This document shows, piece after piece, positions 1,700-12,860 of a stretch of 13,368 bases of DNA. Positions within the stretch are counted from its first letter, which is position 1, and the number at the start of each line of letters is the position of its first letter. The notes beneath the pieces were generated by a model, which had not been told where the DNA came from, made no database searches, and worked only from the letters and a program-made list of their open reading frames with translations. The stretch lies in the IMG/VR virus record IMGVR_UViG_2630968543_000001. One strand, 5' to 3'. The DNA is from a virus. Lineage: Monodnaviria > Loebvirae > Hofneiviricota > Faserviricetes > Tubulavirales > Inoviridae. The translations under genes and the position numbers were made by a program.

Positions 1700-1733
1700 A
1701 ATAAAGAACGTGCAGTGTTGGTAATACTGCACG
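1700..1733 (-). terminator. Hairpin with U tract downstream of repressor gene copy 1 (terminator and/or origin-associated structure)
   Basis: 8-bp perfect inverted repeat CGTGCAGT (1709-1716) / ACTGCACG (1726-1733) with a 9-nt loop. On the minus strand it is followed by UUCUUUAUU (complement of 1700-1708), about 30 nt after the repressor stop. The tandem-repeat boundary (1721) falls in the loop. Confidence 0.45.
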
Positions 1734-1763
1734 TTTGTCTCATTCCTGAGACTGTTAATCCTT

Positions 1764-2210
1764 TTACTCTTCTCCAGACACCGCTTTTTTCATAAACATT
1801 TTAGTACTGTAAGTGTATGAACTTAATGCAGAAACCTGCCTTGCGAGTGCCAGAATATCTTGTTTTTCCAGTGTCCTGATGTTCCACACGATGAAATTAT
1901 GTGCGTTAGTGGTTTCTTCATCAGTATATCCATCCGCAGAAGTGATTAGCTTCCGCTCGGTAGCTTCTTCTTTAACATCAAGAGCATAGCCATAAGCTAA
2001 GGTGTTTAAGTCTGCACCCGTAATTTTAGCTATCTGAATGATGTCACTGAATTTAGGTTCAGTTTTGCCGGACGCTATCCTGACCAGCGTACTCACGCTA
2101 ATGCCAGTCTTCTCGGCCAGTTCTTCATAAGTCGAGTGTTCCAGAATTACCTTTTTGATACGTTCTGCTCTCTGTTTGTCCGCCATAACTTCATGCTCAT
2201 TGTTGCCCAT
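1764..2210 (-). CDS. XRE-family (Cro/CI-type) helix-turn-helix transcriptional regulator, putative phage repressor (copy 1)
   Basis: ORF-track 148 aa. HTH-like segment around aa 27-47 (TYEELAEKTGISVSTLVRIASG). GGAG lies 8 nt upstream of the ATG on the minus strand. The gene is divergent from the replication gene, as with rstR/rstA of CTX-type phages. Confidence 0.75.
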   Translation of the reverse strand: MGNNEHEVMADKQRAERIKKVILEHSTYEELAEKTGISVSTLVRIASGKTEPKFSDIIQIAKITGADLNTLAYGYALDVKEEATERKLITSADGYTDEETTNAHNFIVWNIRTLEKQDILALARQVSALSSYTYSTKMFMKKAVSGEE

Positions 2211-2381
2211 CTACTTGGCTCCATCTTAACAGTGGTTTTTCAATAGTTAGATTTGATGCTCATTTCTGACAATTTAAACATTGCAAATGTATTGACTGTC
2301 AGATCTGAGCATATTACATTGTGACCATTCAATCTGCTCACAAATGACTATTGACACATATTTTGATGGGTGTGACTACTT
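2211..2381. promoter_or_regulatory. Divergent promoter/operator region between repressor and replication genes (copy 1)
   Basis: Plus-strand candidate sigma70 promoter TTGACT (2292-2297), 17-nt spacer, TACATT (2315-2320). Minus-strand candidate TTGTCA (complement of 2267-2272), 17-nt spacer, TAACTA (complement of 2244-2249). Repeated TGAC-core motifs include the palindrome TGACTGTCA (2293-2301), with inverted ATGCTCA (2256-2262) / TGAGCAT (2307-2313). Confidence 0.5.
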
Positions 2382-3434
2382 ATGATCGACTGGTTTACCG
2401 GAATCCTGCCTTGCACACACCGACCGTTACCGGCTGGTAGTGTCGTCAGCGTCGATGCTGACGGTGCAGTGGAGTGGGAAACAGTAAAACGGTTGACCGT
2501 TCGCGGTTCGCATGAGTCCACAATGAAAGTAAGGTCTGTTGGATCTGATGGTGAAGGTAGGGCAACACATCTCTACATTGACGGTAATCCATCAAAGTTT
2601 TTGCAAGGTCACTCTGTTATCGGTTCCGACGATTTGCAAGGGTTGGTGTTAACAGCTTACGCCAGAATATTGGCATTACTGCATATTCCTCATGATCTAC
2701 CATCCTATCGGCAGGTCATGGAAGGGCAATTTAAGATCTCGCGCATCGATATCAATTACATGTATTCATTGTCAACATTAGAAAATGTCCGCGCATGGTT
2801 ATATGCCGCAGAATTTAAAGCTAAAACTCGCCACGGTCGCGCCTGTGGTAAAGGTGGCACTGTTTACTTAGGGAAAAACTCCCGTCGTTGGAGCCTGAAA
2901 TTTTATTCAAAATATGATGAGCATACATCTGGCAAAAAAGGGCACCAGATGGCAGACGAATTCGTTAAAGCTGGTTTACTGGACTGGTCAAAAGATAAAT
3001 TACGCATTGAATTAACATTAAGAACAACTGAATTAATTGATTTGAATCTTACGCTTGGTAATAGCTGGAATATTGAGACGCCCAATAAATTATTCTCTGA
3101 CTATGTAGGGAGAATAGAAATGAATCAAAATACTATATTAACTGATGAAAAAATAATTAATCTCCCAAGAAAAATACAGTCTACATATTTATTGTGGAAG
3201 CAGGGCACGAACATGAAAGAGATGTTACCGAAACCTACATTCTACCGACACCGTAAAGAATTACTTTCTTTCGGAATAGATATTAACTTTTATTGTGAGT
3301 CACCGGATTCTAATAACGTTGTTCCGTTGGTTCGTACTCTTGAAGCCAAACCAGCCAAAATTCCATCATGGGTTTATGAGAAAGGTTTAATTTTCGATTA
3401 TAACCGTATTTCACATGCCAGTAACTGGCATTAA
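2382..3434 (+). CDS. Rolling-circle replication initiation protein (gpII/RstA-like), copy 1
   Basis: ORF-track 350 aa. It is the first gene divergent from the repressor. It contains a YSKYDE segment resembling the conserved Tyr-Asp-Lys-type motif I associate with the phage replication-initiator family; the size is typical. No strong SD; the start codon is uncertain. Confidence 0.65.
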   Translation: MIDWFTGILPCTHRPLPAGSVVSVDADGAVEWETVKRLTVRGSHESTMKVRSVGSDGEGRATHLYIDGNPSKFLQGHSVIGSDDLQGLVLTAYARILALLHIPHDLPSYRQVMEGQFKISRIDINYMYSLSTLENVRAWLYAAEFKAKTRHGRACGKGGTVYLGKNSRRWSLKFYSKYDEHTSGKKGHQMADEFVKAGLLDWSKDKLRIELTLRTTELIDLNLTLGNSWNIETPNKLFSDYVGRIEMNQNTILTDEKIINLPRKIQSTYLLWKQGTNMKEMLPKPTFYRHRKELLSFGIDINFYCESPDSNNVVPLVRTLEAKPAKIPSWVYEKGLIFDYNRISHASNWH

Positions 3435-11256: not shown

Positions 11257-12500
11257 TGAAAAAGATTTTACTCGCATTAACGCTACTATTTTCTTCATGT
11301 GCTTTCGCAGGGTCAGAGCTTGAATTAAATAAAGTCAAGCTACCGGAGGCTATTTCTCTTATTTACAGTGAGGTGCTTAAAGTCCCGTATATGCTAGATC
11401 CACAGCTTGTTAATGATGAACGAATGATTACATTCAGGTTAACACCTGATATTGATGAACGGGAATTTGTAACCCGTTATCTTGGCAATATGAACATTCG
11501 AATATGGACGAAAAAGGGTGTTGATTTTATCGCGCCCTATACGCCGAAAGAGCCGGTTAAGCCACGTTATACATGGACTTATACGCCTCAGTACCGCTCT
11601 GTTGCCTACCTGTCTGATATTCTTGGCGGCTACGTTTCAGGCTCCTTCAATAACAGTGGAGCCGTGATTTCTGACGATTCGCTAAAAGGTTCATCAGGGG
11701 CAAGCAACTACATCAATCGAACCGGTGATATTCTGGTTTATTATGGTACGAAAGAGGATATCGCCATCCTGAAAACACTGGTCACTTCGCTGGATACGAT
11801 GAGTGATGAAGTGGTTGTTTCTGGTTATGTTTTTGAGGTTCAGACCTCGCAGTCTGACGGCTCCGGCATTCTTTTAGCGGCTAAAATTCTGTCTGATAAA
11901 TTCAATATTTCAGTTGGTGCTGCCGGACTGGATAATTTTATCAATATTCGAACCGGCTCCATTGATGCCATTTTCAATCTGCTGAAAACCGACAGTCGTT
12001 TTACTGTTGTCAGTGCGCCACGACTGCGGGTAAAAAATAATGCCTCAGCGTCTTTTTCAGTCGGCTCTGATGTGCCAGTACTGGGCAGTGTTACGGTGAA
12101 TAACAATACGACAACGCAATCCGTTGAATATCGTTCCAGCGGTGTTTTGTTTAACGTGACGCCATCAATCAAAAGTCGGACAATGGATCTCAAGATTCAG
12201 CAGCAGCTTTCCAACTTTGTGACCACTGAAACCGGCGTCAATAACTCGCCAACCCTTATCAAGCGTGATGTAACAACCGAAGTCAGCCTTGCAGATGGTG
12301 ATATTATTTTACTTGGTGGCCTTGCTGAACAGAAAGACAGTAAGGCCAGTTCCGGCTGGAGCTTCTTCGGTTCCCGTACCAGTGAAAGCAACAAGACTGA
12401 TATTATGGTGATGCTTCAGGTCAGAAAGGTTGACCGGAGCAGGGCGACGCCCCGCAGCGCCGCGAGGAGCGGTGAACTGTTCCGGGACAACCTGAACTGA
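11256..12500 (+). CDS. Secretin (pIV-like) phage export channel
   Basis: ORF-track 414 aa. N-terminal signal peptide MKKILLALTLLFSSCAFA. The C-terminal half carries secretin-type segments (VLFNVTPSI, DLKIQQQLS, DGDIILLGGLAEQ). The start overlaps the pI-like stop (TAATG). Confidence 0.7.
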   Translation: MKKILLALTLLFSSCAFAGSELELNKVKLPEAISLIYSEVLKVPYMLDPQLVNDERMITFRLTPDIDEREFVTRYLGNMNIRIWTKKGVDFIAPYTPKEPVKPRYTWTYTPQYRSVAYLSDILGGYVSGSFNNSGAVISDDSLKGSSGASNYINRTGDILVYYGTKEDIAILKTLVTSLDTMSDEVVVSGYVFEVQTSQSDGSGILLAAKILSDKFNISVGAAGLDNFINIRTGSIDAIFNLLKTDSRFTVVSAPRLRVKNNASASFSVGSDVPVLGSVTVNNNTTTQSVEYRSSGVLFNVTPSIKSRTMDLKIQQQLSNFVTTETGVNNSPTLIKRDVTTEVSLADGDIILLGGLAEQKDSKASSGWSFFGSRTSESNKTDIMVMLQVRKVDRSRATPRSAARSGELFRDNLN

Positions 12501-12588
12501 TTGTATGGATTTTTATTATGGCGTTAACTTTTATGGGGTATGAACAGTACGACATCTTCTAGGTATTCAGTTACTTAGAGGATTTATT

Positions 12589-12837
12589 ATGTCTGTAAAA
12601 AATAAGGCGCGTGACCGACTTCCCGGTGGCCGCCTTAAGTCTTATCGTCGTGTAGGTTCACATTTTGCCAGTTGTGCCAGATGGTTTGATAAATCGCCGT
12701 CCTGGTATCGCAATATGATGATGACCAGGCCTGAGCGCCGTGAAGTCAGAAGGCTTCTCAATCAGGTAATGCGTGGTCATGATGCTGACGGCATTGCTTT
12801 TCCGGTCAGTCATCGTCCGTTTGTTTATTGGTGGTGA
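12589..12837 (+). CDS. Hypothetical small basic protein (Arg/Lys-rich), function unknown
   Basis: ORF-track 82 aa. GAGGA lies 7 nt upstream of the ATG. The protein is highly basic with no TM segment. It sits after the secretin gene, where filamentous phages often carry accessory or regulatory genes. Confidence 0.45.
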   Translation: MSVKNKARDRLPGGRLKSYRRVGSHFASCARWFDKSPSWYRNMMMTRPERREVRRLLNQVMRGHDADGIAFPVSHRPFVYWW

Positions 12838-12860
12838 ATTTCGTACGCACGAAATTTCAC
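12834..12860. other. Imperfect 11-bp-stem hairpin overlapping the stop codon of the 82-aa ORF (candidate packaging/origin/att-associated structure or terminator)
   Basis: GTGAATTTCGT (12834-12844) pairs with ACGAAATTTCAC (12849-12860) with one bulged T and loop ACGC; it contains the palindrome CGTACG. No adjacent U tract. The following sequence TTCACGCATAA loosely resembles a XerC-arm-like motif (7 of 11). Confidence 0.35.

Follow-up and report, generated by a model that had tools for sequence, protein, structure and literature searches.

A dif-to-dif array of the filamentous phage CUS/YpfΦ in Escherichia coli, with a duplication that likely arose by mis-termination of pII

What kind of element occupies the 13,368 nucleotides (nt) of DNA recorded in IMG/VR as IMGVR_UViG_2630968543_000001, and why does it hold more sequence than one phage genome requires? 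An original prediction read positions 1700-12860 of this stretch, which at its full length we call the window, as a single integrative-type filamentous phage (inovirus) that encodes its own secretin, and implied that the phage was new. We conclude, with high confidence, that the window is a complete array, running from one dif site to the next, of the known filamentous phage CUS/YpfΦ in the Escherichia coli chromosome, and that it includes a duplication reaching from the putative replication origin into gene III, which likely resulted from mis-termination by the phage's replication initiator, pII.

Identity of the element

The window's DNA is 99.5% identical to that of the YpfΦ prophage of Yersinia pestis, over window 1684-5587 and 5586-13368, and 99.9% identical to the prophage in E. 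coli CP163780. Among 5,426 complete E. coli genomes, 88 contain sequence that covers at least 80% of the window, in the form of units of about 9.5 kb that are 99.5-99.9% identical to it. That is, the window phage shows the approximately 99% nucleotide identity, over the roughly 7-kb core common to CUS-1 and YpfΦ, that we take as the mark of this species. With 99.5% of the DNA in common, the assignment to CUS/YpfΦ would not realistically be overturned. The proteins are likewise those of an inovirus, for they include a pI/Zot ATPase (PF05707), a small coat protein with a signal peptide (phrog_2186), a protein that binds single-stranded DNA (ssDNA; PF17426) and a rolling-circle initiator (PF05144/PF05155), all encoded on one strand.

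YpfΦ has been described as a phage with filamentous virions that contain circular (+) ssDNA, with a genome of 8.7 kb and 13 open reading frames (ORFs), 99% identical to CUS-1 of E. coli K1 (PMC4266046). Its genome is organized in modules for replication, morphogenesis and secretion (YPO2279-2280), together with an RstR-like repressor and variable ORFs on the attL side; it integrates at dif, restoring an intact dif on the 3′ side, forms arrays of 2-4 tandem copies, and carries inverted XerC/XerD sites in its encapsidated genome (PMC4266046). Its 414-amino-acid (aa) secretin, under the name "GspD2", and its Zot protein were modelled in 2023 (PMC10354491), and the accessory regions of CUSφ and YpfΦ are variable (PMC7307601).

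The window phage has in common with YpfΦ (CUS-2) of Y. pestis, and with CUS-1/CUSφ of E. coli O18:K1:H7, a core made up of the repressor, gII, gV, the 83-aa gene, the coat gene, pIII/puvA, the pVI-like gene, pI/Zot, the 414-aa secretin and two small ORFs on the attR side, as well as integration at dif with an intact right dif and the habit of forming tandem arrays. It differs from them in its attL cargo, which consists of a DUF6953 protein, a DpnII-MboI-type nuclease and a 140-aa membrane protein as against YPO2271/2272, and in the 3865-bp duplication, from origin to gene III, that its array carries. YpfΦ has been linked to the fitness of pandemic Y. pestis, and maps of the cis elements and catalogues of the cargo may therefore serve those who work on it.

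The ends of the window are those of an integrated array. A perfect 28-bp dif, GGTGCGCATAATGTATATTATGTTAAAT, stands directly after the last phage copy in 10 loci (the window's own contig and nine others). On contig QONL01000131.1 (GCA_003358355.1) the distance from the imperfect to the perfect dif is exactly 13368 bp, which identifies the window as this dif-to-dif array. Where copies stand in tandem, the last base of the window joins its first, with the imperfect dif lying between copies. Inside the window itself we find no canonical E. coli dif at up to three mismatches, since the spacer of the site at 4-36 is 11 nt long and the true dif follows immediately after the window's end; an association with dif, as originally predicted, is nonetheless clear.

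The 3865-bp duplication

The window consists of one 9503-bp phage unit plus 3865 bp. The additional 3865 bp form a perfect head-to-tail tandem duplication: positions 1721-5585 recur as 5586-9450, and 100% identity spans 1721-5587 versus 5586-9452. The span 1700-12860 therefore holds about 1.4 genomes, in which the repressor gene, gII, gV, the 83-aa gene and the coat gene each occur twice. The original prediction, which treated this span as one element, did not notice the duplication, and it left outside the element three parts that belong to it, namely the attachment (att) region at 1-100, the cargo at 104-1664 and an ORF at 12983-13231. In the truncated first copy the pIII gene (4350-5660) is chimeric: it is cut after codon 413 and reads 23 codons into the next unit, giving a protein of 436 aa. 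We found no mention of the 3865-bp duplication in the YpfΦ papers that we consulted.

The boundaries of the duplication can be compared directly. At the left boundary the sequence reads cgtgcagtgttg followed by GTAATACTGCACG; at the hybrid junction, gaagctgcc followed by GTAATACTGCACG; and at the undisturbed right site, gaagctgcc followed by GTTAATGCCG. The dinucleotide GT is shared by both sites, and the crossover therefore lies at one of three adjacent positions, the rightmost of which is GGT/AATA. The left edge falls at the loop/3′-stem edge of a 13-bp hairpin (hairpin 1; fold z = -4.4), and the right half of this putative origin reads AATACTGCACGTTTGT. The right breakpoint lies inside the pIII gene, at the sequence CCGTTAATG, with the step CCGT/TAAT (GT/TAAT). 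The hybrid junction itself has no predicted hairpin (fold z = -0.6).

Is the left edge, then, an origin of replication? We infer that the (+) origin of CUS/YpfΦ lies at window 1707-1752, because this island is invariant, because the pairing of its second hairpin is kept, and because it is inherited together with pII. In Y. pestis, Klebsiella, Brenneria and 25 IMG/VR contigs, hairpin 1 and the roughly 20 nt 3′ of it show no variation, while the cargo to the left and the repressor module to the right are exchanged. Two substitutions that affect both sides of hairpin 2 leave its stem fully paired. In 27 of 27 loci the island is accompanied by a pII that is at least 85% identical, even where the morphogenesis genes are unrelated. 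The origin of M13 follows the same two-hairpin plan, GAGTCCAC-GTTCTTTAATA-GTGGACTC and then TTGTTCCAAACTGGAACAA, with TTT/AATA at the loop/3′-stem edge, and the pII of M13 nicks at CTTT/A (PMC11765958).

Two points weigh against this placement. The covariation in hairpin 2 probably reflects a single event in one lineage, and hairpin 1 sits where an intrinsic terminator of the repressor gene could lie on the minus strand (a stem, then TTCTTTATT). We disfavour the hairpin as a plain terminator: the island is constant while the repressor module is exchanged, it co-segregates with pII, and a scan for consensus terminators did not flag hairpin 1. A placement of the YpfΦ/CUS (+) origin and nick at window 1707-1752 that can be tested would be of modest value in its own right. 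As a separate observation, the phage is modular, in that its ori island and gII are common (at 85-99% identity) to phages with unrelated structural and export genes, and one relative (locus L047) keeps the CUS structural genes and has its pI and secretin swapped (48% and 56% identity).

We propose the following account of the duplication. The putative pII nick would be GGT/AATA, at window 1722/1723, and CCGT/TAAT inside gene III would be its look-alike. Suppose that pII cleaves and rejoins at this pseudo-site instead of at the origin. Joining in the first round would yield a 3865-nt circle, and joining after one read-through of the origin would yield an over-length circle of 13368 nt. Rolling-circle synthesis extends the gene-sense strand from 5′ to 3′ and so moves to the right of the nick; an origin-to-pseudo-site product would therefore have both the content and the junction that we observe. 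The structure of the window could then result either from integration of an over-length genome at dif or from homologous recombination of a mini-circle with a resident prophage. Judged from the sequences, mis-termination of rolling-circle replication by pII is the most likely source of the duplication.

There is a precedent of a kind among the Ff phages, whose miniphages result from rearrangements that end at the pII nick and at nick-like sequences, giving sub-genomic or over-length genomes. The junction in the window has the same nick-to-look-alike form. Unlike those miniphages, the product seen here is fixed in prophage arrays of wild E. coli, has been multiplied there to two additional copies, and still includes gII, gV and the coat gene.

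The junction recurs in other genomes. Among the 5,426 complete RefSeq E. coli genomes it is present in one, STIN_95, whose array has two truncated units and one full unit, with different cargo. A second complete chromosome, OZ039018.1, also contains the junction, again with two truncated units and one full, and three draft or metagenome contigs have it with one of each. These four belong to a set of 10 contigs in which the 436-aa chimeric protein is recorded; looking it up from an alternative start (386 aa) returned no match. Three others of the 10, of 3920, 3920 and 3895 nt, have terminal overlaps of 55, 55 and 30 nt, and so close to exactly 3865 bp. In each genome the truncated units show no difference from the full copy that accompanies them. 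In terms of single-nucleotide polymorphisms (SNPs), the window's lineage is 0-3 deep, its unduplicated relatives lie 3-5 away, and STIN_95 lies 11-12 away; with this distance and its different cargo, STIN_95 is not the genome from which the window came. This distribution favours recurrent formation at a preferred site.

Several considerations weigh against this account and should be set beside it. One old event, followed by homogenisation of arrays, exchange of cargo and repeated loss, could have produced the same distribution. The boundary of the duplication has a 2-nt ambiguity, which leaves three registers, and the pseudo-site resembles the origin over only about 5-6 nt. Scans of metagenome and viral contig collections for the exact 22-nt junction gave no match. 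The three contigs that close on themselves fit collapsed tandem repeats as well as they fit free circles. The window, moreover, comes from a 14-kb draft contig, and short-read assemblers pass through a simple loop once, so that the number of units given there is a minimum. Among 25 viral contigs we found no other left partner fused to the right half of the origin, the hairpin being intact in all of them, and this comparison adds no support for recurrent joining.

The alternative that survives best is that the duplication was a chance event at GT microhomology, by slippage or unequal exchange and without pII, and that the hairpin at its edge is the terminator of the repressor gene. We regard this as possible, if rather doubtful. 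In its favour, the two sites share only 2 nt at the junction, the minus strand has a hairpin and then a T-rich tract right after the repressor's stop codon, and tandem arrays are prone to recombination (PMC4266046). Yet a random endpoint would fall on one of the three positions at the T/AATA step, within the most conserved non-coding element of the 9.5-kb genome, only about 3 times in 10,000, and the other endpoint likewise reads GT/TAAT. One would expect a terminator to be exchanged along with its gene, whereas the island is invariant while the adjacent repressor module is exchanged; the island also travels with pII and mirrors the M13 origin. Finally, the same junction occurs in arrays that lie 11-12 SNPs apart and carry different cargo.

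That the duplication is an artefact of assembly seems to us very unlikely. An exact repeat of 3.9 kb cannot be spanned by short reads, and the window's source is a draft contig; but the junction, GCTGCCGTAATACTGCACG, must be covered by reads in order to enter any assembly, and it is found in two complete chromosomes (STIN_95 and OZ039018.1) as well as in several independent samples. The uncertainty concerns only the copy number, which is at least one extra unit.

Still less probable is a satellite resembling RS1 of CTXφ, integrated alone by XerCD beside a full prophage. Like RS1, the truncated unit does have genes for a repressor and for replication but none for assembly, and a full prophage follows immediately downstream. 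RS1 is bounded by its own att sites, whereas this unit is bounded by the ori hairpin and the site in gene III, with no dif-like sites at 1721, 5586 or 9451. The unit is also 100% identical to the adjacent full copy, and it carries gV, the coat gene and a truncated gIII, of which RS1 is not known to have counterparts.

What might the extra unit do? The window array has one intact origin before its single full copy, and no second origin downstream before dif. If virion DNA is made from origin to origin, as in CTXφ, we infer that such an array would release little full-length phage, and at most the 3865-nt product. With the extra units the number of repressor genes is doubled or tripled, and an N-terminal pIII fragment without an anchor is encoded as well; in Ff, N-terminal fragments of this kind interfere with infection. 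A bolder proposal, which we consider possible though unlikely, is that the 3865-nt segment is a recurrently formed sub-genomic replicon, or natural "miniphage", which forms when pII terminates at the gene III site, can take circular form, rejoins arrays by homologous recombination and multiplies in them. If so, it might raise the dosage of the repressor, express a secreted N-terminal pIII fragment that blocks superinfection, and interfere with the production of full-length phage. It would then be a functional analogue of RS1 or of defective-interfering genomes, formed by an error of replication and not by Xer recombination. An apparent mis-termination by pII that has been fixed and amplified in wild prophage arrays bears on how sub-genomic and satellite-like derivatives of filamentous phages arise, and also on whether such arrays still release phage.

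Gene content, secretin and relatives

The gene content was determined by family scans against Pfam and PHROG, along with a check for recombinases among ORFs of at least 70 aa; the features are collected in Table 1. The scans bear out the predicted divergent helix-turn-helix (HTH)/XRE repressor, coat protein, pI and secretin. No ORF of at least 70 aa in the window contains a recombinase domain, in agreement with the predicted lack of an integrase, and the window has no tRNA genes (ARAGORN).

Table 1. Features of the window, with coordinates, strand and the evidence for each.
Feature	Position	Strand	Evidence and remarks
att region	1-103	+	imperfect dif 4-36, GC-rich hairpin 38-69, inverted dif-like partner 70-100
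Cargo gene 1, 88-aa DUF6953 protein	104-370	-	PF22266 E = 1.8e-28; repeats with the phage in tandem arrays
Cargo gene 2, 264 aa, C-terminal DpnII-MboI-type PD-(D/E)XK nuclease domain; candidate defence/exclusion gene	381-1175	-	PF18742 E = 6.9e-59
140-aa predicted membrane protein	1242-1664	-	in the E. coli phage variants examined (139 aa in STIN_95); replaced in Y. pestis
Putative (+) origin core	1707-1752	+	hairpin 1 1707-1735 (AACGTGCAGTGTT-GGT-AATACTGCACGTT) carries the T/AATA step; hairpin 2 1737-1752 GTCTCA-TTCC-TGAGAC
Truncated unit, copy 1	1721-5585	+	repressor 1764-2210 (-), pII 2382-3434, G5P 3446-3763, 83-aa 3766-4017, coat 4052-4285, chimeric pIII 4350-5660
Hybrid junction	5577-5598	+	GAAGCTGCC-GT-AATACTGCACG; left half pIII gene, right half ori hairpin; 2-nt (GT) ambiguity; hairpin 1 lost
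Repressor, 148-aa HTH_3/XRE, divergent from gII	5629-6075	-	PF01381 1.6e-9, phrog_3557 4e-74; YPO2273/RstR counterpart (PMC4266046)
pII rolling-circle initiator, 350 aa	6247-7299	+	PF05144 (Phage_CRI) 1.2e-73, PF05155 (G2P_X_C) 4.8e-34
G5P-like ssDNA-binding protein, 105 aa	7311-7628	+	PF17426 1.2e-52
83-aa protein, probable minor virion or membrane protein	7631-7882	+	phrog_3679 1.1e-32; RefSeq 'membrane protein'
Major coat, 77 aa; signal peptide, hydrophobic core, basic C-terminus	7917-8150	+	phrog_2186 4e-29; weak PF05356 E = 0.0016, below curated cutoff
pIII-like adsorption protein, puvA/YPO2278 counterpart, 570 aa (520 aa from 8365)	8215-9927	+	phrog_3942 4.5e-253; position between coat and pVI-like genes; PMC4266046
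Putative pseudo-nick site inside pIII gene, right breakpoint of duplication	9442-9460	+	GAAGCTGCCGT/TAATGCCG
pVI-like minor coat, DUF2523, 95 aa	9940-10227	+	PF10734 1e-20, phrog_974
pI/Zot assembly ATPase, 341 aa	10231-11256	+	PF05707 2.2e-26, phrog_197 2e-93
pIV-type secretin, 414 aa, the YpfΦ 'GspD2' (YPO2280)	11256-12500	+	PF00263 1.3e-24, phrog_1012 8e-138
82-aa ORF, YPO2280a counterpart by position (PMC4266046)	12589-12837	+	no family match
Hairpin cluster, intergenic; candidate packaging signal or minus-strand origin	12834-12950	+	fold z = -3.3
ORF of 82 aa, called as 65 aa from 13034; adjoins attR; YPO2281 counterpart by position	12983-13231	+	ORF listing

The replication side had been called CTX-like, and this holds in part. 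As in CTXφ of Vibrio cholerae, there is no integrase, two inverted and foldable dif-like sites are present, a divergent repressor stands upstream of the replication gene, the prophages form tandem arrays, and accessory genes lie at the ends. The layout and the use of Xer are thus of the CTX kind; the initiator is not, for the window phage has a G2P/Phage_CRI protein. Against Rep_trans (PF02486), which we take to be the family of CTXφ RstA, pII scores E = 0.0056, below the cutoff. By its family matches the initiator is an Ff-type G2P and not a Rep_trans protein, and a replication module of the RstA type is not what the window contains. The window phage differs from CTXφ also in encoding its own secretin, where CTXφ uses the host's EpsD.

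The morphogenesis side had been called Ff-like, and here the gene order and the pIV secretin agree with the description. The phage shares with Ff (M13/f1/fd) and with IKe/I2-2 the order gII-gV-(minor)-gVIII-gIII-gVI-gI-gIV, the Pfam family of pII, a pIV secretin of its own, and, in the putative origin core, a two-hairpin layout with T/AATA at the loop edge. At the level of sequence the resemblance is slight. In BLASTP comparisons with M13, pII is 23% identical over 327 aa (E = 1e-7) and the secretin 27%, the N-terminus of pI gives a non-significant 22% (E = 0.14), and the coat, pIII and pVI proteins show no similarity. The statement that the structural proteins do not resemble those of Ff was accordingly right, and the sequence similarity to M13/f1 structural proteins that would place the phage in the Ff group is absent. 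Ff phages, moreover, do not integrate and have neither repressor nor dif sites.

Closer at hand are the UPΦ phages of Enterobacterales, which integrate at dif, have genes II and V that are more than 85% identical to those of YpfΦ, combine these with an IKe-like morphogenesis module that is less than 20% identical to that of YpfΦ, and keep each core gene (PMC7307601). The window phage has in common with them the integration at dif and the accessory genes beside it. Some IMG/VR contigs carry the ori island described above with pII/gV at 85-97% identity and an unrelated morphogenesis module, in some cases with a secretin that is about 25% identical; these fit the description of UPΦ.

Could the window nevertheless represent a previously undescribed integrative inovirus, combining CTX-like integration with its own secretin, as the first reading had it? 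Megablast of a full copy against deposited phage genomes gave no match, the nearest secretins among phage records are only about 48% identical, and the coat, pIII and pVI proteins are unlike those of M13. The lack of a match in the phage collections arises because YpfΦ/CUS has been deposited inside bacterial genomes, and does not indicate novelty. With DNA 99.5% identical to YpfΦ and 99.5-99.9% identical to some 88 complete E. coli prophages, with a secretin that is 100% identical at the protein level, and with the phage, its dif integration and its secretin already published, we give the idea of a new phage very little chance indeed. Other dif-integrating enterobacterial inoviruses with a secretin exist as well, as the 27-locus comparison and the work on UPΦ show (PMC7307601). 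The element is already known, and only the placement of the origin and the mis-termination model for the 3865-bp unit go beyond the literature that we consulted. Integrated at dif in E. coli and Y. pestis, an inovirus equipped with a secretin of its own has reportedly been on record since the first report of CUS by Gonzalez et al. in 2002 and the work of Derbise et al. in 2007.

It remains to ask whether the secretin belongs to the phage or to the host. RefSeq labels it 'type II secretion system protein GspD', and on the GspD equivalog model it scores 104 bits against a cutoff of 351. The family that it matches in PHROG, phrog_1012, is annotated 'protein IV of M13' (8e-138), and residues 146-371 match the structure of f1 pIV (PDB 7ofh) at E = 1e-10. 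The predicted overlap with the pI gene is real, the stop codon of pI and the ATG of the secretin sharing 1 nt (TAATG). The secretin gene lies within the tandemly repeated phage unit in every array, with no other gsp or type II secretion system (T2SS) genes adjacent, and it accompanies the phage in Yersinia and on a Klebsiella plasmid. Its protein is 100% identical to that of Y. pestis NCTC5923 and is on record in thousands of assemblies. In length (phage pIV-type secretins have about 400-430 aa, with a short periplasmic part), in its position directly after gene I, and in a score below that of GspD, it has the properties of the phage type. We conclude that the secretin is of the phage pIV type, as predicted, and that its RefSeq name is misleading. 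The opposite idea, of a chromosomal T2SS component that merely lies beside a prophage, has that label in its favour and, with the low GspD score, the PHROG match, the overlapping start codon, the repetition with each tandem copy, the movement to other hosts and the missing gsp neighbours against it, may be dismissed. Of the 27 loci with this origin and pII, those that are complete mostly have a detectable secretin (identical, 43-80% identical, or about 25% identical over half the length), and self-encoded export is therefore common in this enterobacterial group.

Some smaller observations concern individual genes. Assemblies disagree on where the pIII-like gene starts, placing it at 8215 (570 aa) or at 8365 (520 aa), and the 50 extra N-terminal residues precede a hydrophobic stretch. 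In the cluster at 12834-12950, one hairpin overlaps a 20-nt repeat (12876-12895) that matches the coat gene's 5′ end (7924-7943) at 85% identity. The two small attR-side ORFs (82 aa and 65 aa) are conserved among the CUS/YpfΦ arrays that we compared. One copy in the tandem array of E. coli CP119053.1 has an insertion of IS1 at the 3′ end of pI/Zot, and the neighbouring copy is intact.

Attachment region and cargo

The window starts with ATT-GGTGCGCATAA-TGTACGACTCG-TTATGTTGAAA, in which a perfect XerC arm of E. coli is followed by a spacer that, at 11 nt, is too long, and by a near-XerD arm. Bases 1-100 of the (+) ssDNA are predicted to fold as one forked hairpin (-31.1 kcal/mol, z = -8.1), which pairs 4-36 with 70-100 around a bulged central region. 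Inverted dif-like sites, about 30-100 nt apart, without an integrase are the hallmarks of a folded attP of the CTXφ type, and both are found here. The att region is conserved in relatives from Erwinia and Brenneria, and an exchange catalysed by XerC on folded ssDNA has been proposed for YpfΦ (PMC4266046).

These elements suggest the following life cycle. The two inverted dif-like sites would fold in the (+) ssDNA to the forked hairpin, and the host's XerCD would recombine this hairpin with the chromosomal dif, so that the left end would bear the imperfect dif and the right end an intact one; with integration in the hands of XerCD, no integrase would therefore be needed. The divergent HTH repressor would control the Ff-type pII, and rolling-circle replication would proceed from the two-hairpin origin at 1707-1752. 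The ssDNA, coated with pV, would then be assembled by way of pI/Zot and the phage's own pIV-type secretin, and possession of that secretin would therefore make the phage independent of a host secretin.

Between the att hairpin and the gene for the 140-aa membrane protein lies a slot of variable content. The alignment to the Y. pestis prophage begins only at window 1684, and among CUS/Ypf variants the slot holds at least six alternative cargo sets. In addition to that of the window, we find proteins of 123 and 155 aa, proteins of 168 and 91 aa, a protein of the STM4504/CBY_0614 family, a 369-aa protein (NU14), and YPO2271/2272 in Y. pestis; the STM4504/CBY_0614 family supplies the cargo of the phage variant in STIN_95. 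Against PADLOC models, cargo gene 2 of the window matches Aga_Helical-REase (1.3e-34) and PDC-S35 (3.6e-11). The contents of the slot look like exclusion or defence genes, and an attL slot that exchanges nuclease-type and other candidate defence genes is of modest value to know.

The phage is also found outside chromosomes and in rearranged form. The 248-kb IncFIB/IncHI1B plasmid NZ_CP132684.1 of K. pneumoniae has at least two tandem phage copies that are 99.9% identical and carry the window's cargo, which shows that the phage can reside on a plasmid and in Klebsiella. An array in Klebsiella spallanzanii has two ori hairpins 225 bp apart (3395-3421 and 3620-3646), the second directly after a masked run of N, and at 4285-10884 it shows a different partial duplication, from gII through the coat gene, with large deletions of assembly genes; it is another rearranged array. 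Lastly, the inner part of the att hairpin (window 27-98) matches about 460 mostly conjugative plasmids of E. coli, Klebsiella and Salmonella at about 93% identity. On the plasmid that we examined, the IncF-type pAPEC-1, the match (2501-2571) directly adjoins a gene of the STM4504/CBY_0614 family, and the plasmid copies may be phage remnants or a shared cassette.

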